Shown: positions 4,267 to 41,014, numbered from the stretch's first letter. The stretch is 64,000 nt of DNA from Candidatus Moraniibacteriota bacterium (GCA_052034935.1 JBPOIB010000005.1:16357-80356); one strand, 5' to 3'. Notes: generated from the sequence alone by a model not told the origin. A program made the numbers and translations.

Positions 4267-5052
4267 CTAGCGCTGAAATGCTTTTTTCAGCTCGGCTTTG
4301 GCTGACTCGACAGAAGCTTTGAAGGCTTCGCTGGCGGTCTTGATTTTGGCGTTGCGGGCCGCTACGAGGTCCGGCCGCGGATCACGTGCCTTATCGAGGC
4401 TCTCATAACCAGCCTTCAACTCGTTTCGAGCGTTTTTCAAATCGGAGCGGAGCGTTTCACGGACAGTTTTGACAGCTGTTCCGTTATCGCAGCTTGAAAC
4501 CGCTTTTTTGAAAGCCGTTTCAACATCACTCTTGAACTCCACGAGCACCGAGTCTATCCCGCCTTGACGGCCGCTGATAGATGTGTCCATCGCTTTTCGA
4601 AACTCATTGACGGCGCTATCGGTAGACTTTTGGCGAGTTTCCGTAGCAGCCTCAACCGCGTCTTCGAAGGCCTTTACGGCTGCTTTTTCCTCTTCGGTGT
4701 TGGCACGCTCTGTGAGATTAGCGTAGCGTTTATTACGGTATGCTTCGCGCTCATCGCGATTGCTGGTCCGTTTTTCGTCCCAGGTGGCACGCTTTCCAGT
4801 GAGCGTCTCGAGCCGGTCGTCTTGTTTTCCGTCCTTCTGTCCGATCCTCTCGGTAATCCGCTTGAGAATCTCGGTCGACCGAGTGTCAAGACGGGAACAA
4901 AGTTGATCAGTCACGGCAGCTTTCCGATTCTCGAGCCGGTCTTCGAATGCAGCTGATGCAGTGATCGGCTGGAGGCCGGCGATACCGAGCACTGTGAGGA
5001 GTGAAAGCGCGCTTCGGCGGCGATTAGAGAGTATCTTCATCATAAGATTCAT
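4267..5052 (-). CDS. secreted coiled-coil protein, hypothetical
   Basis: Signal peptide (LLTVLGIAGLQPITASAAFE) followed by K/E/R/A-rich helical repeats. It overlaps the upstream anti-sigma gene by about 29 nt. Confidence 0.5.
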   Translation of the reverse strand: MNLMMKILSNRRRSALSLLTVLGIAGLQPITASAAFEDRLENRKAAVTDQLCSRLDTRSTEILKRITERIGQKDGKQDDRLETLTGKRATWDEKRTSNRDEREAYRNKRYANLTERANTEEEKAAVKAFEDAVEAATETRQKSTDSAVNEFRKAMDTSISGRQGGIDSVLVEFKSDVETAFKKAVSSCDNGTAVKTVRETLRSDLKNARNELKAGYESLDKARDPRPDLVAARNAKIKTASEAFKASVESAKAELKKAFQR

Positions 5053-5578
5053 AGAGACTGATTAAAAGGGCGTCTTCTTCAGCATCGCTTCCGGACTCAA
5101 ATCGGTCCTCTTCACCGAAGTCTTCGTCCGAAACAGTGGTCAGTTCCGCTAGCACCGTATCGATTGGGGTGCCGGCTGATACTGGGCCGTCCGAGTCGAT
5201 GACTGGTGTCCCGACTGACTGTGCCGGAGATGTTTCTTTGGGAGCGCTGCCGATGACCGGATTCGGAGCGGTGTTCGGATTCTGATTATTGAGTCCGAAC
5301 GTGATACCGACGACCGTAAGGACGGCGATTAAGGCGAAAGCATACCGGGGCCAGGTATTTTGGAGCATAGAGAGCCAAGTTATCGATTTACGTGCCTCCT
5401 GTTTGAAAAGACGAGGGGTTTCACTCTTTGTGACAGCCGGATCAGGGAGTGCTTCGAGGAGCCTGGTGAAGGCTTCTCGGCGTGGCTCGAGCGAAGAGTG
5501 TAGCTTTTCGGCAGAGCGGCGAAAAGTGATGAATTCCGGGTCTTCTTCGGGCGATGAAGATGAATAAGGCTGATTCAT
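5024..5578 (-). CDS. putative anti-sigma factor (single TM)
   Basis: The ATG lies 5 nt beyond the sigma-factor stop. Central TM helix YAFALIAVLTVVGITFGL and an acidic C-terminus. The position immediately downstream of an ECF sigma is typical. Confidence 0.5.
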   Translation of the reverse strand: MNQPYSSSSPEEDPEFITFRRSAEKLHSSLEPRREAFTRLLEALPDPAVTKSETPRLFKQEARKSITWLSMLQNTWPRYAFALIAVLTVVGITFGLNNQNPNTAPNPVIGSAPKETSPAQSVGTPVIDSDGPVSAGTPIDTVLAELTTVSDEDFGEEDRFESGSDAEEDALLISLYESYDEDTL

Positions 5579-5582
5579 AGAT

Positions 5583-6137
5583 TTAGATACTAAAGAGTTG
5601 AACGTGACTGCTCCGGAGTCTTTTGAGGGCACGGGACTGGATTTGGCGGACATTCGCTTCGGACAGACCGGTTATGCTGGCGATTTCGCGATGGGAGAGT
5701 TCGGAAAAGAAACGAAGCGTGATGATTTCCCGCTCTCGATCGTCGAGGGTGGCGAGGGCAACGGAGAGCTCTTCGAGTCGGTCGGCAACTTCGAGTGTGT
5801 CGTTTGGCGAGGGGTTTGCGCTTGGTCGATCACGAAACGCCTCTTCGACAGGGGTGTCCGGCAGAAGATCCTTTTTTTGCCGATAGTAGTCGATGATACT
5901 ATTCCGGGCCATCTGGTAGAGATAGGGGAGGAATTCTATCTCAGCTCCTTTCTCGGAAAGGGAGAGCGCCTTGATGAAGAGGTTCTGAGTGAGATCTTCG
6001 GCCGTCTCACGATGCCGGACCGAAAGGATGATGTAGCGATAAAGCGGCGTGAACAAGCCTGAATACAAGCTTTCAAAAGCCCCGGGCTCATTCGCTTTAG
6101 CGGCCTGGAAGTAGGCTTGCGCCTCTTGGACGGTCAT
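5583..6137 (-). CDS. ECF-type RNA polymerase sigma-70 family factor
   Basis: Region 2 (LTQNLFIKAL...YLYQMARNSIIDYYR) and region 4 HTH (ITLRFFSELSHREIASITGLSEANVRQIQSRALKRL). Start taken at MTVQEAQ, which is internal to the track ORF. Confidence 0.8.
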   Translation of the reverse strand: MTVQEAQAYFQAAKANEPGAFESLYSGLFTPLYRYIILSVRHRETAEDLTQNLFIKALSLSEKGAEIEFLPYLYQMARNSIIDYYRQKKDLLPDTPVEEAFRDRPSANPSPNDTLEVADRLEELSVALATLDDREREIITLRFFSELSHREIASITGLSEANVRQIQSRALKRLRSSHVQLFSI

Positions 6138-6220: not shown

Positions 6221-6249
6221 TTGACATACCCTAGGGGGGGTATTAGAAT
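6221..6249 (+). promoter_or_regulatory. sigma-70-like promoter (TTGACA-17-TAGAAT) with a CsoR-type operator (ATACCC-N6-GGGTAT) in the spacer
   Basis: TTGACA 6221-6226; GC-rich inverted repeat ATACCCtaggggGGGTAT at about 6226-6243; TAGAAT 6244-6249. It sits directly upstream of csoR. Confidence 0.55.
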
Positions 6250-6278
6250 TCAGGAAGAAATTCGTAATGTAACAAGCT

Positions 6279-6545
6279 ATGGCTAGTCTCTCAAAGCAGA
6301 AGCTCATTCGTCGACTCAAGATTATCGAGGGTCAGGTCCGTGGCTTACAAGAAATGATTGAAAAGGATGTCTACTGTATTGACGTCATTACCCAGACCTC
6401 AGCGGTGAAGCAGGGGCTGACCGTAATTGAGGACACGATGATGGAAAGTCATCTGGGGAGCTGCGTCATCAAGCAGATCAAGAGCGGAAAAGAACAGAAG
6501 GCAACCGAGGAAATCCTGAAGGTCTATCGGTTGAAAAGAAAATAA
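6279..6545 (+). CDS. csoR: CsoR/RcnR-family metal-sensing transcriptional repressor
   Basis: 88 aa; YCIDVITQTSAV...ESHLGSC matches the C-H-C metal-ligand pattern of the CsoR (DUF156) family. Confidence 0.8.
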   Translation: MASLSKQKLIRRLKIIEGQVRGLQEMIEKDVYCIDVITQTSAVKQGLTVIEDTMMESHLGSCVIKQIKSGKEQKATEEILKVYRLKRK

Positions 6546-6579
6546 GATACCTCGTATATAATTTTGAAAAAATACGCAT

Positions 6580-7143
6580 ATGTCATCCTCTCTCTCGCTC
6601 CCACTCGCCGTCGCTCTCATGATTATTACGGGAATTCTCGGGCTCGGAATCGGTCATTCTCTGACTCCTGAGTATCGGCTTTCGATGTATGAAAAGAACG
6701 GGATGGATCTCGGTCGTGCCGATCGAACACTCGACCTCCGGTATGTGAATGCAATGATTGCTCATCACCGGGGAGCGATGCTGGTCGCAGAACAGGCGAC
6801 AAAAAGTGAACGGACTGAAGTGAAGAATCTCGCTGAGGCGATACTGAAAGATGAGCCGAAGGCGATTGCTGAGCTGTACGCCTGGAAAAAAGACTGGTAT
6901 CAAGATGAACGAAAAGTCGCGGATCCGATTGCCCCGAAACTGGGAAGCTACGATAAGACGTTCGACCTCAGATTCCTCAACGCCGTTATCGCTCACCATG
7001 AAAATGGTGTCGCGATGACTCAGGATGTCCGCCTGAAGTCGAATCGCTCCGAAGTCCTCGATAATGCCGACGCGGTTGAGGCTTTCCTCAAGGGTGGGAT
7101 TACGATGCTCAAGGAGTGGCGCAGCGCTTGGTATAGCCTGTAA
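6580..7143 (+). CDS. DUF305-family protein (tandem duplicated domain)
   Basis: Two repeats carrying NAMIAHHRGAMLVA and NAVIAHHENGVAMT, with an N-terminal TM. Confidence 0.7.
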   Translation: MSSSLSLPLAVALMIITGILGLGIGHSLTPEYRLSMYEKNGMDLGRADRTLDLRYVNAMIAHHRGAMLVAEQATKSERTEVKNLAEAILKDEPKAIAELYAWKKDWYQDERKVADPIAPKLGSYDKTFDLRFLNAVIAHHENGVAMTQDVRLKSNRSEVLDNADAVEAFLKGGITMLKEWRSAWYSL

Positions 7144-7152
7144 TCCATCGGT

Positions 7153-9438
7153 ATGAAAAAAACAACTTTCTCTGTTGCCGGAATGCACTGCGCGAGTTGC
7201 GCTGCAATCATCACAAAATCACTCCAGAAGGTCGAAGGCATTGGTGAAGTACAAGTGAATTACGCCACTGAAACCGCGAGCGTTTCATACGAACAGTCGG
7301 TCGCACCGGTAGCGGCCATGAATGAGGCGGTCACCAAGTATGGCTACACTCTCGCTCCACGAGAGGTTCTTCCCCAAGCGGTGCTCGCTCCTGACCAGAG
7401 AGAACCTGGGCCGAGAGCTGGGGGCGACCATACGAATTCACTCAAGGCAAGCGAATTAGCCAGTCAGCGGGCTAAAACACAGCTGGTATTTCCTCTCGCG
7501 CTCGCCGTCTTCATTATCATGATGTGGGACATTGCCGCTCGCTCGCTCTCGGGCATTCCGAATCTGCCGCTTCCGATGGAAGTCTTCGGCATTGTGGAAC
7601 TTGTTCTCGCGACGGTGGTCATGTTCTGGATTGGCCAGCCATTCATTGCTGGTGTTGCCCGGTTTATTCGCTACCGGGTTGCCAATATGGATACCTTGAT
7701 CGGTATCGGAACACTTTCAGCCTACCTCTACAGCGCCGTTATCACCTTACTTCCAGAATTCCAGGAACGGTTCCGGCTCCCGGACTATACGTACTTTGAT
7801 GTCGTTATCGTTGTCATTGGTTTTGTCACGCTCGGTAAGTATCTCGAAGCAAAATCAAAGGAGAAAACGGGCGAGGCTATCAAAAAACTGCTTAACCTCC
7901 AAGCAAAAACGGCACTCGTTTTACGTGATGGAACAGAGCAAGAAATCCCAGTGAGCGAAGTGCTTGTAGGAGACACGGTAATCGTGAAACCGGGGAGCAA
8001 GGTTCCGGTTGATGGGAAAATCATCGAAGGTGCAACTGCGGTCGACGAATCAATGATTACTGGCGAGTCGATGCCGGCAGATAAGCGAGTCGGCGATATG
8101 GTTATCGGCGCCACACTCAATAAGCAGGGAAGTATCCAGCTTCACGCGACGAAAGTGGGGTCTGACACGATGCTTTCCCAGATTATCCGCATGGTTGAGG
8201 AAGCGCAGGGCTCAAAAGCGCCTATTCAGGCCACAGCCGACAGAATATCGGGAATTTTTGTCCCCGTGGTACTCGGCATCGCCTTCGCCGCACTCCTCGC
8301 CTGGATTGTCATCGGTTCGTTTTTCATCGGTCAGGCACTCGCTATCTCTTATGGATTGCTTTCCTTTGTTGGGGTACTGGTGATCGCTTGTCCCTGTGCT
8401 CTTGGCCTCGCTACTCCTACGGCGATTATCGTCGGAGTTGGCAAAGGAGCGCAGTATGGCATCTTGGTGAAAGACGCGGAGAGCCTCGAACTCCTCAGTC
8501 AGGTCGATACAATCGTCTTCGACAAGACCGGCACTATTACCAAAGGTGAGCCTGCGGTGACGGACGTTGTCGTTTTGGACAGTCGTTACACCGAAGAACA
8601 GATTGTCGTATTGGCCGGGAGTGTCGAAAAGAAATCCGAACATCCGCTCTCAGCAGCTATCGTTGCCCGAGTGAAGGAAATGGGGCTCGATTTTGCGCCG
8701 GCCGAGAGCTTTCAGGCACTGGAAGGAGTGGGGGTCGAGGCACACGTTCAAGGTACACAAATATCTATCCATAAGCCCGAAAAGGACAATCAAGACTCGA
8801 AGCTGCGAGCTCTTCAGGTAGAGGGAAAGACGGTTGTCATCGTGGCGGCAGACGGTCGAGAGGTGGCGCTCATTGCTCTCGCTGACACCATAAAAGAGGA
8901 GGCGGTTTTGGCGGTTACTGAACTGCGAAAGAGGGGTATCCGAACTATCATGTTAAGCGGAGACAACAAAATCGTGGCTAATCAAATTGCGAAAGAGGCT
9001 GGGATTGATACGGTCATCGCCGAAGTTCTGCCCAACGAGAAAGCGGGGAAGATTCGTGAATTGCAGGCGGCGGGGAGTATCGTCGCCATGGTGGGTGATG
9101 GGATCAATGATGCCCCGGCTCTCGTTCAAGCGAATGTCGGAATCGCTATGGCAACCGGCACCGATATCGCGATCGAATCAGCCGGAGTGACGGTGCTCCA
9201 CGGAGATCTTCGTCGGGTTGTCCAGGCCATCGAGCTCTCGCGGGCGACGATTCGAACGGTAAAACAGAACCTTTTCTGGGCGTTCATCTATAATGTCATC
9301 GGTATTCCGGTCGCGGCGGGACTCCTCTATCCGCTGTGGGGTATCATTCTGAATCCAGTGTTCGCCGGTCTTGCGATGGCCTTCTCGAGTTTGTCAGTGG
9401 TCGGGAATTCACTCCGACTGAAAACGAAAAAATTATAG
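7153..9438 (+). CDS. copA: copper-translocating P1B-type ATPase
   Basis: N-terminal HMA (GMHCASCA), CPC (ACPCALGLATP), DKTGTIT, GDGINDAPAL, and a TGES-like motif. Confidence 0.9.
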   Translation: MKKTTFSVAGMHCASCAAIITKSLQKVEGIGEVQVNYATETASVSYEQSVAPVAAMNEAVTKYGYTLAPREVLPQAVLAPDQREPGPRAGGDHTNSLKASELASQRAKTQLVFPLALAVFIIMMWDIAARSLSGIPNLPLPMEVFGIVELVLATVVMFWIGQPFIAGVARFIRYRVANMDTLIGIGTLSAYLYSAVITLLPEFQERFRLPDYTYFDVVIVVIGFVTLGKYLEAKSKEKTGEAIKKLLNLQAKTALVLRDGTEQEIPVSEVLVGDTVIVKPGSKVPVDGKIIEGATAVDESMITGESMPADKRVGDMVIGATLNKQGSIQLHATKVGSDTMLSQIIRMVEEAQGSKAPIQATADRISGIFVPVVLGIAFAALLAWIVIGSFFIGQALAISYGLLSFVGVLVIACPCALGLATPTAIIVGVGKGAQYGILVKDAESLELLSQVDTIVFDKTGTITKGEPAVTDVVVLDSRYTEEQIVVLAGSVEKKSEHPLSAAIVARVKEMGLDFAPAESFQALEGVGVEAHVQGTQISIHKPEKDNQDSKLRALQVEGKTVVIVAADGREVALIALADTIKEEAVLAVTELRKRGIRTIMLSGDNKIVANQIAKEAGIDTVIAEVLPNEKAGKIRELQAAGSIVAMVGDGINDAPALVQANVGIAMATGTDIAIESAGVTVLHGDLRRVVQAIELSRATIRTVKQNLFWAFIYNVIGIPVAAGLLYPLWGIILNPVFAGLAMAFSSLSVVGNSLRLKTKKL

Positions 9439-9445
9439 CATCACT

Positions 9446-10465
9446 ATGCAAACCTATACCTTTCATGTTTCTGGGCTCCACTGTAATGCGTGTATTCTCC
9501 TCACTGAGTCTGAATTGACCGAACATCCGAAAATTTCTTCAGCCAAGACAAGTCTCAAAAATCATTCCATCGAAGTGGTGGGAGATTTTGGCGATACACC
9601 GCCTGAAGCAGTTGCGCGCGAGCTCAGTAGCCTCCTCGAAAAACATGGCTACCGACTCTCGGTTGAAAAAGAAGTTCAAGTACGTAACTGGTCCGACTTC
9701 CGCTTCGCCCTCCCCATCGCGCTTGCCTTTGCTCTTTTCTTCGTCCTTCTCCAAAAGGCCGGCATTGTGAACGTGGTGGATGCGGAATCGGTTTCGTATG
9801 GGACAGCCTTTCTCATTGGCGTGGTCGCTTCGCTCTCGACGTGTATGGCTGTCGTCGGCGGACTGGTACTCTCGATGTCGGCTACTTTTGCGAAGGAAGG
9901 GGATCGGATGAAGCCTCAGCTTCTCTTTCATGTCGGCCGGTTAATTGCCTTTTTTCTTCTCGGAGGATTGATCGGAGCCCTGGGGGCGAATTTCTCCTTG
10001 AGTACGGGGGCGACCTTTTTCCTGAGTCTCTTGGTTGGTCTGGTGATGCTTATCCTTGGCATCAATCTCCTCGACGTCTTTCCTTGGGCGAAAAAATTGC
10101 AGCCAGCGATGCCGAAATTTCTCTCAAAGCGAGCTTACAACGTCTCGAAGCTGAACCATACCTTCACTCCGTTTCTTATCGGTATCGCCACCTTTTTCCT
10201 GCCCTGTGGTTTCACACAGTCGATGCAGCTCTATACGCTTTCGACGGGAAGTTTTATAGATGGTGCCTTGACGATGCTTTCTTTCGCCCTCGGAACACTG
10301 CCGGTACTGGCACTCATCAGCTTCAGCTCGTTTTCCATGCAGCAAAGTACGAAAGCCGGAGTCTTCTTCAAGTCTGCTGGACTCATCGTTATCCTGTTCG
10401 CTCTGATGAATCTCATCAACAGTCTCGTTATCGCTGGGCTCATCTCACCAGTGTTCAATTTCTAG
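9446..10465 (+). CDS. HMA-domain protein fused to a TauE/SafE- or DsbD_2-like polytopic permease
   Basis: N-terminal ferredoxin-like metal-binding motif (GLHCNACI) followed by about 8 TM helices containing ...SLSTCMAVVGG. Confidence 0.6.
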   Translation: MQTYTFHVSGLHCNACILLTESELTEHPKISSAKTSLKNHSIEVVGDFGDTPPEAVARELSSLLEKHGYRLSVEKEVQVRNWSDFRFALPIALAFALFFVLLQKAGIVNVVDAESVSYGTAFLIGVVASLSTCMAVVGGLVLSMSATFAKEGDRMKPQLLFHVGRLIAFFLLGGLIGALGANFSLSTGATFFLSLLVGLVMLILGINLLDVFPWAKKLQPAMPKFLSKRAYNVSKLNHTFTPFLIGIATFFLPCGFTQSMQLYTLSTGSFIDGALTMLSFALGTLPVLALISFSSFSMQQSTKAGVFFKSAGLIVILFALMNLINSLVIAGLISPVFNF

Positions 10466-10517
10466 CGTGGTACAGTGTGGGTAATCCGAAAAATAACTTC
10501 CTGATAATCTAAAATAT

Positions 10518-10910
10518 ATGAAAATAACCTTTGGCATTATTCTTGCGGCAGCGATTGGTCTCGTTGGGTACCTGTTCATTCAGTCAGGGGGAGCAAGTTC
10601 AACGAGTGAGGCCCCATCGACGAGCAATGTCAGCATCGTTGATGGGCGGCAGATCGTTGTTCTCTCGGCCAAGGCTGGGTATACCCCAAGGGTGAGCGAG
10701 GTAAAGGCTGGAATTCCGACCATTCTTCGGGTTGAAACCAATGGGACTTTTGATTGTTCGTCCCAGATTCGTGTTCCGAGTCTGAATATTAGCCAGGCTT
10801 TGCCGGCTACGGGAGCGACCGATATTATGCTTGGAAGCCTGGCCGCTGGAAAACTTGATGGCACCTGCGGGATGGGTATGTATCCGTTCCAACTCAATGT
10901 TCAGAGTTAA
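10518..10910 (+). CDS. secreted cupredoxin-like small protein
   Basis: Signal peptide; beta-rich; the C-terminal ...DGTCGMGMYPFQLNV resembles the Cys/Met copper-site region of PF13473-type cupredoxin-like domains. Confidence 0.45.
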   Translation: MKITFGIILAAAIGLVGYLFIQSGGASSTSEAPSTSNVSIVDGRQIVVLSAKAGYTPRVSEVKAGIPTILRVETNGTFDCSSQIRVPSLNISQALPATGATDIMLGSLAAGKLDGTCGMGMYPFQLNVQS

Positions 10911-10913
10911 GGC

Positions 10914-11453
10914 ATGAGCAGGACTTCTTACCTTGTTATTGCCCTTGCTGCCCTCGCTCTCATGGAAGGCGTTGCTTGGACTGTCTGGAAGTCCTCAAAG
11001 GAGGCGCCCGCGCACCAGCCAAGGGCCGATGAGGAATCTGTTCGTAAGGAAACGTCGCAGGATCAGTCTTCTCCGGCGACCCATCTTTCCGAAGTTTCGA
11101 ATCCGAGCTCGTCAGGAACGGAGGATGCTGATTCTGAGAGTTTTCCTCCTCCCACCACTGAAGCAAAGAACGGCCGGACGGAACGGACCATTCATATGGG
11201 AGTTCGTCAGTATGCTTGGGACCCTCCCATCATAAAAGCGAAACAGGGCGAGCTGGTCCGCCTCATTGTCCATAATGCCGATGTTCAGCACGGATTGGTA
11301 ATCCCTGAACTTAACGTATTAAACATTGATATCCCTCCAGATGGGGCAGTGATAGAGTTCGTTCCCGATAAAGTTGGGACGTTTGTGTTTTTTTGCTCCT
11401 ACTACTGCGGCGATGGGCACAGCGAGATGCGTGGAAAAATTATCATTGAATAG
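10914..11453 (+). CDS. cupredoxin-domain protein
   Basis: WDPPIIKAKQGELVRLIVHNADVQHGLVIPELNV...GTFVFFCSYYCGDGHSEMRGKIIIE shows the H...C...H...M type-1 copper-site pattern. Confidence 0.6.
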   Translation: MSRTSYLVIALAALALMEGVAWTVWKSSKEAPAHQPRADEESVRKETSQDQSSPATHLSEVSNPSSSGTEDADSESFPPPTTEAKNGRTERTIHMGVRQYAWDPPIIKAKQGELVRLIVHNADVQHGLVIPELNVLNIDIPPDGAVIEFVPDKVGTFVFFCSYYCGDGHSEMRGKIIIE

Positions 11454-11493: not shown

Positions 11494-11526
11494 CACCCCG
11501 GTTTCTCGGGGTGCTTCTTTTTTGGG
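11494..11526. terminator. bidirectional terminator between convergent genes
   Basis: caccccg-gtttct-cggggtg followed by cttctttttt. Confidence 0.7.
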
Positions 11527-34605: not shown

Positions 34606-37600
34606 TTAGGCCTGAGTGCTGGCAGTTGCCGGTTTGGCCAAAACTCGGTCATTATCATCGAACCACATCTCGTAGATGACGGGGATGAAGAAGAGCTTGG
34701 CGATACCGGAGAAGGAGAGTCCGGCGATGATAGCGCCCCCGAGGCCCTGCCAGATCGGGTCAGCGAGCGTGATCGGGATGAGACCGATGATGGTCGTGAG
34801 CGCGGTGAGGAGAATCGGCTCGAGCCGACTCGTTGCACCCTCGACGACCGCTTCGCGGACGGGGAGTCCGAGGTTGAGATTCTTGTTGATCTTGTCCACC
34901 ATGATGATGGAATTGTTCACCACGATGCCGAAGAGTGCGAGTACGCCAATCAAGGCTGGGAAGGAGAGCGGGATACCGAAGAGAGCAAAGATGATGAAGA
35001 CGCCCGAGACCGCAATCGGAATGACGAGGAGTACGATGAGCGCTTTACGGAACGAATTGAACTGGATTACCATCGTCCCGAAGATGAGGATGGCCGAGAG
35101 CACCATTGCATAGAGGATAGATTGAACAGACTTATTGTTCTCTTCGTTTACGCCACCGGTCTTCCAAGTGTAGCCAGCGGAAAGGCCGAGTTCAGTATCG
35201 GCGAACTTCTCGAGCGCAGCATTCAGCTCGGTTACGGCGTAGCCTTCGTCGACGCCGGCTGAGACGGAGATGCTCCGCTTCTCGTCCTCGCGGGTGATGA
35301 GAGTAGGATTCTTTTCGAGGGTGATGGTACCGAGCGAGAGGAGGGGGACCTGCTTGCCATCTTTTGTTTCAAGCAAGAGGCGCCCGAGGTCTTCGGGTGT
35401 GCCGAACTCTTCGTCGGTGAGACGGATGATGATATCGCGCTTATCTTCGCCGAATCGCACATCTTCTTTGACCGTGTAGCCGCTCCCGAGGGTGCGGAGG
35501 AAGAGAGCAGTATCGGCCGGAGTGAGGCCAGCTGCCGCGATTGCAGCATCATTCGGCGTGAAGGTGAGCTTCTTTCCGGCACTTGAAAGCGAAAGCGTGA
35601 CATTGCTCGTCCCGGCAGTCGCCTGCAGATAGGTCTTGGTCTTTTCGGCGTACGCCTGCAAGACGGAAAGGTCTTCGCCAAGAAGTTTCAATTGAAGATC
35701 GCTGCCGGCTGGCGGACCGCCGGAGAGTTGCGAGGCCGTGACAATGCCCCCGTTCCAATCAGCGAAGGCGCGCTCCAGTTCAGTGACGATTTCGCCAGAG
35801 CTCTTTTCGCGCTCCTTCGCCTTGATGAGGTGGACAGTGAAGAGGATGAGATTGTAGTCCTTGCCGGTCGCGCTTACTGCGCTGTCGGTCGGGGCGCCAG
35901 CACCGATTTCCGCGAGTACGAAATCGAGCTCAGGGAGATCTTGGAAACGTGGTAAGAGCTCGTTGACAGCTGCCACTGCCTTCGTCTCACTTATTCCAAT
36001 CGGCATCTCGGCGCTGACGTAGACGATTGTCGTGTCATCACTCGGAAAGAACTCGTTCACGACATAGCCGAGAGGAACGAGAGCATACGATCCGACCATG
36101 AAGATGATGAGAAAGACCATGGTAAGACGCCGGGCACGCTTCGAAGAGAGAATGCGCTCAATCAAAGCGCCGTACCACACCGAGAGTGAGTCAAAAGAGA
36201 GGAATCCGTGGTCTTGGAAATTCCCCCAGATTCTCCCAATCTTCGTTTCATGCCAAGCGGTCACGCTCTGGAGGAATGAGCGGATGAGACGGAAAGCGAG
36301 AAAGAGCATGATGAGGCCGAGAAGATAGAAGACCCATTTCAGCGGTCCGGCTGGCATGAGTTGGAAAAGGACAAGCGCGGCAATGATGAAGAGTGCGCCT
36401 CGCAGGAAGACAACAACACGTCGCGGAAACTTTCCCTCGAGGAAAATCGCCATGTAGGGGATGACGAGGAAAACAGCCGTGATAGCCGAGAGAGCGAGCG
36501 CCGAAGAGACGACAATCGGAATCGGCCGAATGAATTCGCCGATGATGCCAGTCGCGAGGAGGAGGGGAACGAAGGCCCAGACCGTCGTAATGGTCGTTGT
36601 CATGATGACGCCGCTGAAATCGCGGAAGACGAGGAGAGCTGTCTCGAGCGGTGTGAACTTACCGGAGCGGTGATAGCTCGCGAGGGCCGAAATGACGACG
36701 ATAGCATTGTCGACGATGATGCCGAGCGCGATGAGGAGCGAGAAGAGGGTAATGAAGTTAATCGAAATCCCTGCTGCGCCCATCACAAGAAAGGTGACGA
36801 GGAAAGTGAAGGGGATGGCAAAAGCGGTGATGAGAGATTGGCGCACTCCGAAGAAGAGGAGGAGAACGATAAAGACGAGTCCGAATGTGATGAGGAAGTC
36901 CCGCTGGAGCTGGCTGAAACTCTTATCAATTTCCTCTGCACCATCGAAGTAGAAGAGTGTTTCGAAGGCAATTGGGGAAGCGGCTCGGTAGTCGCTAATT
37001 GCTTTCTGGATGCTATCGATTGCTTCGCGCGTATCAGCGCTCTCAGTCTGGTAGACAGAAAAGAAAATCGCCCGGCTACCGGCGTGCGATGGGGTGGCAG
37101 CAAAAGCGGCGAGACTGCCGGGTTTCTCACGCTCATTGATATCAGCGATGCTTCCGAGCGCTACCGTCTGGCCTTGGAGGGAAAAAGGCAGATTGCGCAG
37201 ATCTTCGATTGAGCGAATGCCTTTTTCTTGGTCGAGCGAGAATGCAGTCGCTCCCGAAGCGATGCTGCCGCCAGGGAAACTCGATAAAGATCCTTCAATT
37301 GTCCGGCCGATGCTGGCGATATCGAGACCGTAGGCATTCAGTTTCTCTGGCGAGAGGAGAATGGAGACTTCGGGCTCGCGCCGATAGGAGAGACTCGCTT
37401 TTTCGACGGCCGGGAGCTCTTTGATTTTCTCAAGGAGACGGTCAGCAAGTTCTGGGAGTGCGCTCTCATGGCCGGGAGCCGAGACGGCAAAAAGAAGCAC
37501 CGGCTGGTTGGTGAAGTCAATTACTTCGACAGAGGGGTCCTGAGCTGCTTCGGGAAGCGTATTCACGCGATCGATGGCATTCTGGACATCGATTTTAGCT

Positions 37601-37962
37601 TTGTCCGGATCAACGGAAGAGGCGAATTCGATCACAATCGAAGAGAAGCTCTCCTGTGAGTTCGAGGTGACACGCGTGACGTCGGAGAGCCCGGTAACGG
37701 CATCTTCGAGCGGAATCGTGACAAGGTCCTCGATGTCTTCGGGCCCAGCCCCCGGAAAAGCGGTTGCGACGATAACGGTCGGAATCTGGATATCTGGGTT
37801 GAGTTCCTTCTTCAGCGAAAAATACATGGTGATGCCAGCGACGATGAGCGTCGCGGTGATGAGCAGGATCGTGCGAACGCTCGCGAAGTAGCGGCCGATG
37901 AGACCGTCTTTGAGCTTCGGGTCGAAGTGGAGCCGGTCAAAGAAGCCTTTGGTATAGGACAT
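34606..37962 (-). CDS. RND-superfamily efflux transporter permease (AcrB/HAE-like, 12 TM, two large loops)
   Basis: 1118 aa with N- and C-terminal halves of 6 TM each and the typical conserved Gly/Asp TM4/TM10 regions. Confidence 0.85.
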   Translation of the reverse strand: MSYTKGFFDRLHFDPKLKDGLIGRYFASVRTILLITATLIVAGITMYFSLKKELNPDIQIPTVIVATAFPGAGPEDIEDLVTIPLEDAVTGLSDVTRVTSNSQESFSSIVIEFASSVDPDKAKIDVQNAIDRVNTLPEAAQDPSVEVIDFTNQPVLLFAVSAPGHESALPELADRLLEKIKELPAVEKASLSYRREPEVSILLSPEKLNAYGLDIASIGRTIEGSLSSFPGGSIASGATAFSLDQEKGIRSIEDLRNLPFSLQGQTVALGSIADINEREKPGSLAAFAATPSHAGSRAIFFSVYQTESADTREAIDSIQKAISDYRAASPIAFETLFYFDGAEEIDKSFSQLQRDFLITFGLVFIVLLLFFGVRQSLITAFAIPFTFLVTFLVMGAAGISINFITLFSLLIALGIIVDNAIVVISALASYHRSGKFTPLETALLVFRDFSGVIMTTTITTVWAFVPLLLATGIIGEFIRPIPIVVSSALALSAITAVFLVIPYMAIFLEGKFPRRVVVFLRGALFIIAALVLFQLMPAGPLKWVFYLLGLIMLFLAFRLIRSFLQSVTAWHETKIGRIWGNFQDHGFLSFDSLSVWYGALIERILSSKRARRLTMVFLIIFMVGSYALVPLGYVVNEFFPSDDTTIVYVSAEMPIGISETKAVAAVNELLPRFQDLPELDFVLAEIGAGAPTDSAVSATGKDYNLILFTVHLIKAKEREKSSGEIVTELERAFADWNGGIVTASQLSGGPPAGSDLQLKLLGEDLSVLQAYAEKTKTYLQATAGTSNVTLSLSSAGKKLTFTPNDAAIAAAGLTPADTALFLRTLGSGYTVKEDVRFGEDKRDIIIRLTDEEFGTPEDLGRLLLETKDGKQVPLLSLGTITLEKNPTLITREDEKRSISVSAGVDEGYAVTELNAALEKFADTELGLSAGYTWKTGGVNEENNKSVQSILYAMVLSAILIFGTMVIQFNSFRKALIVLLVIPIAVSGVFIIFALFGIPLSFPALIGVLALFGIVVNNSIIMVDKINKNLNLGLPVREAVVEGATSRLEPILLTALTTIIGLIPITLADPIWQGLGGAIIAGLSFSGIAKLFFIPVIYEMWFDDNDRVLAKPATASTQA

Positions 37963-37968
37963 AGGGAT

Positions 37969-39132
37969 TTACTGGATCGGTTCAATAGTTTCACCCGAGA
38001 GAACGCTCGCGTTCAGGACAAGACGGGCATCTTTTTCCAAACCATCGGTAACGATTACCGAAGAGCCAATCGTGGCGCCGAGCGTCACGGCAATTTCTTT
38101 CGTGAGGTGATTTTCATCCATCAAGATGACCGAGGTCTTGTCGGCGGCTGACCGGATCGCATCGACTGGGATGAGGAGGCCGGTTTCAGTTTCTCCGACG
38201 AGCGGGAGACGAAGCGTGACAAAGCTGTTGTGTGCGAGAGTGTCGGCGGTCGCTGCCGGTAGAGCATAGGTCGCCATGACGAGACCAAGCGTGTTTTCAC
38301 TCCGGGCGAGATAACCTTGAGAAAGTACTGTCTCGCCGGTGGCCTGCTCGAGGATGGCGATGCCGGAATCGACGAGTGCATCGGCGGTCGCTTTCGGAAG
38401 CGCGGCCTCGAGGATGGCGGTTGGAGCTGTACCACGAATCGTCATGAGGACAGTGCCAGTGGAAACGAGATCGCCCGGACGAACGCCAATGTACTCAACT
38501 GTGCCACTGGCAAGGCTTTTCGGCCGGAGCGCGGCATCGCTTCGTTCAGCAATAGCGAGGTCAAGAGCGGCGTTCGAGCGCCCAAGTCGGAGGCGTTCGA
38601 GCTCGAGCTTGAGTGCCTTCAGTGCCGCCTTCTCCTCATCTTTGCTTTTCGAGCTGTCATCCTTGGCAATCTCCTTTTGCAGCTCAATAATGTCTTTCTC
38701 CAACTCGAATGTGCGCTCGGTGTAGCTAGTGCTGAGTCGAGCCTTTTCTTTTGTCAGGTCAGCAACCCCACTACCATAATCATTCGTCAGTGTTGCAAGT
38801 GTTTGTCCGACGCCGACCATCTGGCCGGTTTTGACGTGGATACTCTTTACGACACCAGGGGCAAGAGCGACGATGTCTGTGACACCTGATTTCTTCACCC
38901 GAGCAGAAACAGTTGTTTCGGTTTGATCCGTTCCCACGGTAAAAATATCGGCTGTTTTGATAGCTTTTTCTGGAAGCTCAGATTCTTTATCTGCTGTCCG
39001 CAAAGTATGCGCAAGCACGACCGTACTGAAGAGGATGACAAGCACGATAATGAAACTGACCGTTGGTCTTTTTTCCAGCCGAACGAAGAGTGCTTTGAAC
39101 ATAGAGTGAGAAAAAATGGATAGGAGGTTCAA
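37969..39132 (-). CDS. RND efflux periplasmic adaptor (membrane fusion protein)
   Basis: N-terminal TM, lipoyl-like VTDIVALAPGVVKSIHVKTGQMVGVGQTLATL, coiled-coil hairpin, beta-barrel. Confidence 0.75.
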   Translation of the reverse strand: MNLLSIFSHSMFKALFVRLEKRPTVSFIIVLVILFSTVVLAHTLRTADKESELPEKAIKTADIFTVGTDQTETTVSARVKKSGVTDIVALAPGVVKSIHVKTGQMVGVGQTLATLTNDYGSGVADLTKEKARLSTSYTERTFELEKDIIELQKEIAKDDSSKSKDEEKAALKALKLELERLRLGRSNAALDLAIAERSDAALRPKSLASGTVEYIGVRPGDLVSTGTVLMTIRGTAPTAILEAALPKATADALVDSGIAILEQATGETVLSQGYLARSENTLGLVMATYALPAATADTLAHNSFVTLRLPLVGETETGLLIPVDAIRSAADKTSVILMDENHLTKEIAVTLGATIGSSVIVTDGLEKDARLVLNASVLSGETIEPIQ

Positions 39133-39262
39133 CAGATAATAGCAGGAATAAAGCCTTTAGTCAAGCCCTGTTATGAGCTTTTCTCAGGATAATTCCCAGC
39201 TCTTTTTCACGCTGGTTTTCTCAGAGTAAGGGGAAAATAGTTCCGTGATACCATGAGAATAT

Positions 39263-41014
39263 ATGCATCAATTTATCCGAGAAAATCCAGGCAGCATCGC
39301 TCTTCTTACACTCCTCATTATTGGGCTTTTATGGCACCAACCGTGGCCGTATATTCTAGCAATTCTCGCAGGACTAGTTATTCTCGGCATCCAGTCCTGG
39401 GAGCGGATCAGGATACGGAAGTGGGACCTCGACTATATCGCGCTTCTCGCATTGACCACGTCGCTCTTCCTTGGCGAATGGCTGGCTGGTGCGATTATTG
39501 CGCTCATGATTTCTCTTTCGCGGGCGCTCGAGAATTACGGTTCGCGCCGAGCCGAAGCATCGCTCGAGGAGCTTTTCCGTCTGCTCCCCAAAGCAGCGCT
39601 CGTGAAACGGGGAGAGGGATTTGTCGAGGTGCCACTTCAAGAAATCGGGGTCGGCGAGACGATTTCGGTCCGACATCGCGAAATGGTACCGCTCGATGGG
39701 ACGCTTTCTGCCTTTGGGGGGCTTTTCAGTGAAGCGAATCTGACGGGCGAGATGGAGCCAGTCGAGTATCGATCAGGCGCGCGGCTCAGGAGCGGTATCG
39801 TGAATATGGGCGAAGCAGTTGAGGTGATGGTTGTGGGGGACTTCAGTCACTCGACGTATCAAAGCATGCTCTCGATCGTGAGCGAAGGAAAGCGGGAACC
39901 ATCTTCGCTGGTCCGGCTGGCTGGTCGGCTCAATTGGCCGTTCACCATTGTCACCATCGTTCTTTCTGTGGGTGCCTACCTTATTACTGGGGATATGGAA
40001 CGTTTTCTTGCCGTCCTCGTCGTTGCGACGCCGTGCCCGCTTCTTATTGCTGCTCCGATTGCCTTTCTCGGTGGACTTTCCAAGGCGGCACGACGTCAGG
40101 TCATCATCAAGACACCAGAAACGCTTGAGCGTCTCGCCAAGGCAACGACGATTTTTTTTGATAAAACAGGTACTCTCACGCTCGGCATCCCGAAGCTTCA
40201 AAAAGTCGAGCTGCTTGATCAGCGGTTTTCAGAGAGGGATGCTCTCGCTCTTGCTTCGGCGCTTGAAGAACATTCACTGCATCCGATTGCTCGGGCCCTG
40301 GTATTCGCGAATCGCGAGAAGAGTGGGGACGACCTTGATGCGGCTGATGTCACGGAAAAGCTCGGTGAAGGTATCAAGGGGAGTATCGCTGGGAAGAAGT
40401 ATCGCATCGAGAAGAGCGTTTCTGATTCTGGGATGGCCGTAGTGCTCGCCCAAGACGAGGGACCAATTGCCCGTTTTGTTTTCGATGACGTACCGAAACC
40501 AGGCATCGAAGCGACGTTTGACTATCTGCGTAAGCGAGGACTGAAGCTTTCCGTACTCACCGGTGACAAAGAAGTGAATGCACATCGAGTTCTCGATCGG
40601 TATGGACTCGATATCATCGCTGATTGTGATCCAGAGCGGAAAATGGCAGTTGTTGAGGAGGCGAAGAAACGGGGCGAGATTGTGATTATGGTCGGTGATG
40701 GTGTGAACGATGCACCAGCACTCGCTCTTGCGGATGTCGGGGTCGTCTTTTCTGGTACGGAAAACAGCCTCTCTCTCGAAGCAGCCGATGCGGTCATCCT
40801 AAAGCGGGATATCGGCCTTTTCCAGGAAACCATCCATATCAGCCGTCGCTCGTACCGGATTGCCCGGCAAAGTATGGTTCTTGGTATCGGACTCTCATTT
40901 CTTGGCATGCTTGCCGGCGCATTCGGCTATCTGCCGCCGGTGCACGGAGCGATTCTCCAGGAGGTGATCGACGCGCTCGTTATCGTGAATGCCGTCCGCG
41001 CTGCGTATCGCTAG
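39263..41014 (+). CDS. short P1B-like P-type ATPase (no N-terminal metal-binding domain; PCP motif)
   Basis: TGE, ATPCPLLIAAP (TM6 CPx-like), DKTGTLT, GDGVNDAPAL; 583 aa. Confidence 0.8.
   Translation: MHQFIRENPGSIALLTLLIIGLLWHQPWPYILAILAGLVILGIQSWERIRIRKWDLDYIALLALTTSLFLGEWLAGAIIALMISLSRALENYGSRRAEASLEELFRLLPKAALVKRGEGFVEVPLQEIGVGETISVRHREMVPLDGTLSAFGGLFSEANLTGEMEPVEYRSGARLRSGIVNMGEAVEVMVVGDFSHSTYQSMLSIVSEGKREPSSLVRLAGRLNWPFTIVTIVLSVGAYLITGDMERFLAVLVVATPCPLLIAAPIAFLGGLSKAARRQVIIKTPETLERLAKATTIFFDKTGTLTLGIPKLQKVELLDQRFSERDALALASALEEHSLHPIARALVFANREKSGDDLDAADVTEKLGEGIKGSIAGKKYRIEKSVSDSGMAVVLAQDEGPIARFVFDDVPKPGIEATFDYLRKRGLKLSVLTGDKEVNAHRVLDRYGLDIIADCDPERKMAVVEEAKKRGEIVIMVGDGVNDAPALALADVGVVFSGTENSLSLEAADAVILKRDIGLFQETIHISRRSYRIARQSMVLGIGLSFLGMLAGAFGYLPPVHGAILQEVIDALVIVNAVRAAYR

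Follow-up and report, generated by a model that had tools for sequence, protein, structure and literature searches.

A 64,000-nucleotide (nt) stretch of DNA from a Candidatus Moraniibacteriota bacterium (GCA_052034935.1 JBPOIB010000005.1:16357-80356), referred to here in its full length as the window, carries at positions 6221-11453 a promoter followed by six co-directional genes, of which csoR is the first and copA the third. It is highly probable, judging from the sequence and its comparison with related genomes, that these genes constitute a copper-inducible single transcription unit, repressed by CsoR through a palindrome in the promoter, of an uncultured, Moranbacteria-like member of the Patescibacteria. 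This kind of system is well known; what is new is the phylum, in which such sites have not been described.

The palindrome in the csoR promoter

The promoter combines a -35 hexamer TTGACA (6221-6226) and a -10 hexamer TAGAAT (6244-6249), both on the plus strand, and positions 6221-6249 read TTGACA-TACCCTAGGGGGGGTAT-TAGAAT, with a spacer of 17 nt (6227-6243). This pair is the sole 11/12 match to a sigma-70-type promoter that the promoter scan returned between positions 5000 and 12500, a region in which promoter-like matches as a whole are not enriched (7 found vs 4.9 expected). The csoR start codon lies 29 nt 3' of the -10 hexamer. By direct reading, an 18-nt palindrome, ATACCC-TAGGGG-GGGTAT, occupies the entire spacer together with the final A of the -35 hexamer, and is regarded here as the putative CsoR operator (ATACCCTAGGGGGGGTAT, 6226-6243, strand-neutral). 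The first-pass annotation of this DNA, made from the sequence alone, had placed the palindrome between TTGACA and TAGAAT, and this is what the sequence contains, except that the last -35 base is also part of it.

The resemblance to known CsoR operators that was proposed at the same time is real. In Streptomyces, the operator consensus is ATATACCCCTNAGGGGTATAT, and the general motif of CsoR sites, TAC-X9-GTA, represents the type-2 class, which is bound by CsoR, as distinct from the type-1 class bound by RcnR (PMC3902906). Two CsoR tetramers occupy each site, binding is lost when the dyads are swapped or a half-site is offered alone, Cu(I) abolishes it, and a site is located 5' of csoR itself (PMC3902906). 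The window site is of type 2 as well, in the form TAC-X10-GTA, since it reads TAC-CCTAGGGGGG-GTA with G/C tracts between the dyads. The operators of S. lividans CsoR (at csoR-4375, copZA1, and copZA2) are likewise G-tract pseudopalindromes with TAC/GTA dyads flanked by A/T, and their consensus ATATACCCCTNAGGGGTATAT is to be compared with ATACCCC-N-GGGGTAT for the clade studied here.

Within the 64-kb window, the exact pattern ATACCC-N6-GGGTAT occurs once, while simple arithmetic gives a chance expectation of ~0.004 per 64 kb for an exact 12-base palindromic pattern. When up to two mismatches are allowed, two palindromes are found against 0.98 expected. Since this relaxed count is no better than chance, a scoring matrix was used in its place, built from 45 operator sites of other genomes with the window site left out. 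It gives 20.6 bits at 6225-6244 and 8.6 bits for the runner-up anywhere in the window. The second palindrome with two mismatches (9327-9344) lies within copA, scores 8.6 bits, and is taken as a chance match. Apart from the operator, the matrix scan revealed no CsoR box in the window, and in particular none ahead of a second DUF305 gene, which lies at 2560.

The strongest support for an operator comes from its conservation. Genome loci with a gene for a CsoR relative were collected, 48 in all; 46 of them could be tested, as in the other two (L026 and L046) the upstream DNA is too short. The pattern TACCC-N3-7-GGGTA stands 5' of csoR in 45 of the 46, so that the operator postulated in the first-pass annotation is indeed present in orthologous loci. 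The CsoR proteins of these 45 loci are 63-94% identical, and the sole testable locus without the box belongs to a Thermoanaerobacteraceae outgroup whose CsoR homologue is 35% identical. One box (L036) has a single-base difference in its 3' dyad. The box stops 12-58 nt short of the aligned csoR coding region in 44 loci, and it is almost always flanked by a TTGAC-type -35 and a TAnnnT -10: the TTGAC-type hexamer is 0-5 nt 5' of the TAC dyad of the box in 40 of the 45 related loci, the TAnnnT element begins at or within the 3' GTA dyad, and, of those 40 loci, 26 have exactly 17 nt between -35 and -10 and 37 have 16-18 nt. The dyads are separated by 9 bases in 31 related loci and by 10 in 14; with the window site, which has 10, the longer form accounts for 15 of 46. 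Positions flanking the box carry only ~0-0.3 bits each, whereas the entire site matrix amounts to 24-26 bits; thus, the conservation of the site goes beyond what simple relatedness would leave. The ~547 kb of related loci contain just two further copies of the strict pattern. One of the two (L005:13909-13923, TACCCCATAGGGGTA) lies ~100 nt 5' of a gene for an HMA::DsbD_2 protein, a membrane protein discussed below, which in this locus stands 6.7 kb away from the csoR-copA unit. For five more copies of the gene that likewise lie apart from csoR, there is no recognisable box within 300 nt upstream. A box match at 10693 of L004, whose spacer is shorter, falls inside the coding sequence of the CupA-like protein and was set aside as a chance match.

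The nearest CsoR proteins (76-94% identity) are from metagenome-assembled genomes of Patescibacteria, namely Moraniibacteriota, Paceibacterota, Nomurabacteria, and Zambryskibacteria. Several related metagenome-assembled genomes were deposited as Gammaproteobacteria, Bdellovibrionales, or Saccharibacteria but carry operons of Patescibacteria type. The distance from promoter to gene varies among the related loci. In 34 of the 45, the csoR start codon is 6-11 nt 3' of the -10 (for example, TATACT-CCTAAT-ATG), and leaderless csoR mRNAs are predicted from this short distance; leaders of 23-38 nt occur in the window and in ten related loci. A leader motif, AGAAATTCGTAAT, was considered as a common element of the longer leaders, but only L001 and L002 have it and the other long-leader loci do not, so it is a sign of close relatedness between these two. 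In L007 (6619-6888), box and promoter precede an open reading frame (ORF) for a 73-aa SHOCT-domain membrane protein, itself ahead of csoR, and the same ORF is apparently upstream in the truncated locus L026. The SHOCT-domain protein is an additional small regulon member in some lineages.

The product of csoR (6279-6545, plus strand, 88 aa) belongs to PF02583 (E = 2.1e-23, 83 bits vs a cutoff of 22.8), and its top matches in the PDB are CsoR of Geobacillus (4m1p, 1e-15), S. lividans (4adz), and M. tuberculosis (2hh7). Its Cys33, His58, and Cys62 align with the Cu(I) ligands of the solved CsoR structures, and this Cys/His/Cys set is kept in all 47 Patescibacteria-type orthologues. There is no His among residues 1-57, i.e. 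no N-terminal fingerprint of RcnR or InrS. In addition, Tyr32 directly precedes Cys33 and Glu78 follows Cys62 by 16 residues, a spacing shared with M. tuberculosis CsoR, whose Tyr35 and Glu81, reportedly (Liu and colleagues, in 2007), form a second shell that couples Cu(I) binding to DNA release. As for the contact with DNA, the protein retains Gln39, in the sequence 'VITQ'; a conserved Gln in helix 2 and an RLXR motif in helix 1 are used by CsoR for DNA binding (PMC3902906).

The six-gene unit and its probable control by copper

Downstream of csoR, the plus strand encodes a DUF305/CopM-like protein (6580-7143; PF03713, E = 5.5e-19), CopA (7153-9438; HMA, E1-E2 ATPase, and hydrolase domains in Pfam), an HMA::DsbD_2 protein of the COG2836 type (9446-10465; PF00403 and PF13386), a CupA-like cupredoxin (10518-10910; Cupredoxin_1), and a CuA-type cupredoxin (10914-11453; Cupredoxin_1/COX2, with COX2 at 26.3 bits vs a cutoff of 22). 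These Pfam matches bear out the gene assignments of the first-pass annotation, and independent gene calls on the assembly L049 give the same six genes. The gaps between them measure, in order, 34, 9, 7, 52, and 3 nt. A hairpin resembling an intrinsic terminator (11494-11513, plus strand; an 8-bp stem with six G-C pairs, then CTTCTTTTTT) lies 40 nt past the last stop codon, and on the minus strand a 12-bp stem at 11518-11489 could serve as a terminator for a convergent SWIB-domain gene. No terminator-like site was found between the operon genes, as the internal matches are all weak and within coding sequence.

A few details of the earlier description need adjustment. Five genes, rather than six, follow csoR, making six in all. 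The spacing is indeed close, with gaps of 3-52 nt and not 8-50 nt. Only one DUF305 protein is part of the unit; the second DUF305 gene near 2560 does exist (2560-2976, Pfam E = 2.5e-32), and it is 3.3 kb upstream, behind genes on both strands. The set was also called unusually complete, which holds for the CuA-type gene, present in only one of the 48 loci, but not for the core order, which is common in these bacteria. There, the usual order is csoR-(DUF305)-copA-HMA::DsbD_2-CupA-like: in 30 of the 38 loci that have the HMA::DsbD_2 gene, its start is 2.2-3.5 kb past the csoR stop codon, with copA in between, and in L047 it comes 380 nt after csoR.

CopA can be assigned to the P1B-1 class of Cu(I)-exporting ATPases (TIGR01511, 588 bits vs a cutoff of 397). 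It has one N-terminal HMA domain (PF00403), and its motifs are CASC at 13, TGES at 303, CPC at 413, DKTGT at 457, YNVIGIP at 713, and MAFSS at 742, so that the P1B-1 signature is complete: CPC in transmembrane helix 4, YN(x4)P in helix 5, MxxSS in helix 6, and DKTGT. The protein encoded between csoR and copA matches DUF305 (PF03713) with 69 bits vs a cutoff of 27 and has a single N-terminal hydrophobic anchor (residues 7-25). It resembles the cyanobacterial DUF305 protein CopM by this domain and by a weak match to the CopM domain of NCBIfam, but the latter, at 50 bits, is below the curated cutoff of 90. Among the related loci, CopA proteins preceded by DUF305 are mostly 52-76% identical to window CopA, and those without DUF305, 37-58%, a pattern that may reflect two subtypes of the operon, with DUF305 and CopA moving as a pair.

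Judged by comparison with characterised systems, the locus is most likely a classical CsoR operon. Like S. lividans CsoR, the window protein has a site upstream of its own gene, the Cys/His/Cys Cu(I) site, and the Gln of an 'ITQ' segment; it differs in being minimal, with no N-terminal extension, and its gene heads the efflux operon, whereas csoR of S. lividans is apart from copZA. The csoR-copA(-copZ) operons of Firmicutes are similar in that csoR (COG1937) is self-regulated and copA (COG2217) is a core target (PMC4938975). Moreover, in the CsoR meta-regulon reconstructed in silico for gut Firmicutes, a protein with HMA and DsbD_2 domains (COG2836) is among the inferred targets, as here (PMC4938975). 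The window operon differs from these by having no soluble chaperone of the CopZ type, by the placement of its site in the spacer between -35 and -10, and by the predicted leaderless csoR mRNA in most of its relatives.

Several points nevertheless weigh against the proposed control. The TAC and GTA dyads of the window site are 10 bases apart and not 9 as in S. lividans, and its left arm is ACCCT, in place of the ACCCC found in most relatives. The operon has one operator site only, while dual CsoR sites are frequent in Firmicutes (PMC4938975). The RLXR motif reads R12-L13-K14-I15, with the fourth Arg replaced by Ile in nearly all orthologues, and this Arg is needed in S. lividans CsoR (PMC3902906). 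An extra Arg11 precedes the motif (RRLKI), and since M. tuberculosis CsoR reads RLKT and so is likewise without the fourth Arg, RLKI may well be a variation rather than a failure. That the six genes are co-transcribed as one unit is something we infer from spacing alone, and the 52-nt gap 5' of the CupA-like gene could house a weak internal promoter. Finally, the segments just upstream of the six genes (6257-6278, 6558-6579, 7131-7152, 9424-9445, 10496-10517, and 10892-10913) are all devoid of a recognisable Shine-Dalgarno sequence, so that the start codons were assigned by homology.

Other readings of the locus have to be considered in light of these data. One may argue that the palindrome is a product of chance or the site of another regulator, for example, one linked to the divergent sigma-factor gene of the extracytoplasmic function (ECF) type, and that CsoR acts elsewhere. 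The start codon of that gene is 83 nt from the -35 hexamer, and neither the two-mismatch motif count in the window nor the promoter-like matches in the region exceed chance. However, the box accompanies csoR in 45 of the 46 testable loci whatever the upstream neighbour, sigma homologues are found in only three loci, where they are downstream and 25-29% identical, and ECF promoters are not known to be palindromic. The box also fits the experimentally defined CsoR consensus (PMC3902906), and this first reading appears extremely improbable. A sensor of the CsoR/RcnR family whose effector is not copper but, for example, Ni/Co as in RcnR and InrS, persulfide as in CstR, or formaldehyde as in FrmR, is conceivable in a functionally diverse family, and NCBIfam assigns the window protein only below threshold (RicR with 71.8 bits vs a cutoff of 175, RcnR and FrmR weaker), while InrS (5fmn) is among its PDB matches at 2.7e-9. 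Nevertheless, its best solved relatives are copper sensors; its x-Cys-His-Cys fingerprint, Tyr32, and Glu78 are those of Cu(I) CsoRs, with no N-terminal His; and the genes downstream are of copper type, encoding a P1B-1 Cu(I) ATPase, HMA domains, and CupA-like and CuA-type domains. The operator, too, is of the type-2 class bound by CsoR and not of the type-1 class of RcnR (PMC3902906), which leaves a non-copper effector very unlikely.

It is also conceivable that the operator controls csoR alone or with its nearest neighbours, and that the HMA::DsbD_2 gene and the two cupredoxin genes have a promoter of their own and are not regulated by copper. The 52-nt gap ahead of the CupA-like gene would leave room for this, and in several relatives the HMA::DsbD_2 gene is ~6 kb from csoR, with a box within 300 nt upstream in only one of six such cases. 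Still, that one case (L005) means that a detached copy has its own box, the gene otherwise keeps its place behind csoR in 30 of 38 loci and follows it after 380 nt in L047, and, in the window, gaps of only 9 and 7 nt precede copA and HMA::DsbD_2 and one of 3 nt precedes the last gene, with no terminator-like site in between. Such a division of the operon is therefore improbable, though a little less so than the readings weighed above. Thus, the interpretation of the palindrome as a CsoR operator with autoregulation, put forward in the first-pass annotation, is supported by comparison, namely by the 45 of 46 loci, the published consensus, and the Cys/His/Cys ligands.

For CsoR control of the whole unit, we infer binding at the site and the response to copper from sequence, and the following course of events may be envisaged. 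At low copper, apo-CsoR would sit on the G-tract palindrome between -35 and -10, presumably as two tetramers by analogy with characterised CsoRs, and would block RNA polymerase; repression would cover csoR and the five genes behind it, and since the operator stands ahead of csoR in one six-gene unit, csoR would be autoregulated. A rise in cytoplasmic Cu(I) would load Cys33, His58, and Cys62, CsoR would leave the DNA, and the operon would be transcribed. CopA would then export Cu(I) from the cytoplasm. The four accessory proteins, i.e. the DUF305/CopM-like protein, HMA::DsbD_2 with its CupA-like partner, and the CuA-type protein, would presumably handle copper at or outside the membrane.

The HMA::DsbD_2, CupA-like, and CuA-type proteins

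The accessory part of the operon is less familiar than its regulator. The HMA::DsbD_2 protein joins a cytoplasmic CxxC (HMA) domain to seven predicted helices. Four cysteines, C13, C16, C133, and C254, are invariant in 28-29 orthologues: C13 and C16 form the CxxC of the HMA domain, and the other two are part of the motifs ASxSxCxAxVGGL and TFFLPCGFTQSMQ. An AlphaFold2 model built with 35 sequences has a mean predicted local distance difference test (pLDDT) score of 61.5, with 42-68 in the membrane part, and this low-confidence model places helix breaks at C133 and at P253-C254-G255. Breaks of this kind in Cys-bearing helices are a feature of CcdA/DsbD thiol-disulfide transporters, which are built on a six-helix core with an essential Cys in helix 1 and another in helix 4. 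The window protein belongs with them to the DsbD_2 Pfam family and carries C133 and C254 in separate predicted helices. Unlike these transporters, HMA::DsbD_2 has no thioredoxin-like partner domain and instead has an HMA domain and an extra helix fused in front. When a profile of 28 orthologues was compared with PDB sequences, only HMA domains were retrieved and no relative of the membrane part, and a fold search likewise found no solved relative of the DsbD_2 membrane part. A literature search on COG2836/PF13386 and on CsoR in Patescibacteria returned only PMC4938975 and no functional study.

Taken alone, the CupA-like protein matches CupA of Streptococcus pneumoniae weakly (2mry/4f2e, E = 0.0017), but a profile of 28 orthologues finds CupA at 3.4e-11 and the N-domain of S. 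pneumoniae CopA (4f2f) at 1e-7, with the ligands aligned. Asp79-Cys80-Ser81 and Cys117-x-Met119-Gly-Met121-Tyr are invariant in these 28 orthologues, and the protein begins with a hydrophobic segment (residues 3-21). It thus resembles pneumococcal CupA, a membrane-anchored Cu(I) chaperone of cupredoxin fold, in its layout, with the anchor at the N-terminus and the cupredoxin-like domain after it, in the Cys...Cys-x-Met-x-Met pattern, and in its place in a copper-efflux operon. It differs in several respects: the pneumococcal operon is under CopY and that of the window putatively under CsoR; window CopA has a classical HMA domain rather than a cupredoxin-like N-domain; and the CupA-like gene is tied here to HMA::DsbD_2, either adjacent to it or as a C-terminal fusion. 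Because CopA has an HMA domain and the regulator is CsoR, we call the gene CupA-like and not CupA.

This tie is without exception where it can be judged, as the CupA-like gene is directly after, or fused to, HMA::DsbD_2 in 31 of 31 such loci, with gaps mostly of 1-26 nt. Fusions of DsbD_2 to one or two C-terminal CupA-like domains are found in L044 (10488-12242) and in the proteins P0381, P0397, P0470, and P0477, and P0445 resembles a truncated fifth such protein fusion. The constant adjacency and the fusions together suggest a functional unit that does not include CopA. Its topology can be predicted from sequence in two ways. Since the HMA domain is cytoplasmic and is followed by seven helices, the C-terminus of HMA::DsbD_2 is expected outside the cell, and the fused domains would be there with it. 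In addition, summed over 28 CupA-like orthologues, Lys and Arg outnumber Asp and Glu by 40 to 3 before the anchor and stand at 40 vs 36 after it. The charge bias and the fusions thus predict an extracytoplasmic CupA-like domain. Pneumococcal CupA itself is said, following Fu and colleagues in 2013, to act in the cytoplasm.

It is possible, although we put it forward tentatively and with more doubt than confidence, that the pair acts as a module for handling copper across the membrane, hitherto undescribed and widespread among Patescibacteria. In such a module, a cytoplasmic CxxC (HMA) domain would be joined to a CcdA-like core whose two broken helices each carry a single invariant Cys, either Cu(I) or reducing equivalents would cross the membrane through this core, and the acceptor would be the extracytoplasmic, membrane-anchored CupA-type domain. 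Relatives of the CupA-like protein number 945 at E <= 0.001 among 1.84 billion cluster representatives (50% identity), whereas a 2020 review restricted CupA to a small number of streptococci (PMC7558416).

The last gene of the operon encodes a protein of 179 aa with a single N-terminal anchor and no other domain besides its cupredoxin domain, which matches the CuA domain of Thermus ba3 oxidase (E = 5e-8) with all CuA ligands aligned; the 30 family members compared have His126, Cys161, Cys165, His169, and Met172 without exception. The protein shares the cupredoxin fold and the His, Cys-x3-Cys-x3-His-x2-Met ligand set with Thermus ba3 subunit II (2cua, 1ehk) and with the CuA domain of N2O reductase; in contrast to both, it is stand-alone, anchored, and encoded in a copper-resistance operon. 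No COX1/oxidase subunit I and no NosZ catalytic domain was found in the 34 window ORFs scanned, and Patescibacteria are described in at least one account as generally without respiratory chains (PMC7507113). Apart from the window, the CuA-type gene occurs only in L003 (7253-7780) among the 48 loci. The family has at least 182 members, and some of them are auto-annotated as 'cytochrome c oxidase subunit 2'. In the window, this cupredoxin may belong with the HMA::DsbD_2/CupA-like pair. Both cupredoxins had been described as secreted, which is imprecise, as each has one N-terminal hydrophobic anchor. Because all three accessory soluble-domain proteins of the operon have a single hydrophobic segment at the N-terminus, "membrane-anchored" is the better term.

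Other loci in the window and implications

Two further regions of the window are of note. The ECF-type sigma-factor gene (5583-6137, minus strand) diverges from the cop promoter and is followed by a 209-aa ORF (5024-6137 region, minus strand) with a hydrophobic segment and no Pfam match, which may encode an anti-sigma factor; the related loci do not share this gene neighbourhood. Farther away, genes for an RND permease (34606-37962) and a membrane-fusion protein (37969-39132), both on the minus strand, lie next to a divergent gene for a Cd/Zn-type P1B ATPase (39263-41014; 583 aa, TIGR01512, 401 bits) that has no HMA domain. The region 34606-41014 looks like a second metal-efflux locus, and the window scan found no CsoR box in it.

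In summary, a classical CsoR switch, with its operator in the promoter spacer and with autoregulation, would be among the best-conserved recognisable regulatory sites in Patescibacteria. Hardly any transcription-factor sites have been recognised in these bacteria, and none is testable in culture. The value of the finding is mainly for annotation. In this respect, the collection of 45 sites provides a ready motif together with a promoter model, comprising TTGACA, 17 nt, TAnnnT, and an often leaderless start. For laboratories studying copper homeostasis, the HMA::DsbD_2 and CupA-like genes offer a conserved pair that is testable in heterologous hosts. If the proposed module is real, CupA-like domains would be a large family whose usual partner is HMA::DsbD_2 and not CopA, rather than a streptococcal curiosity.

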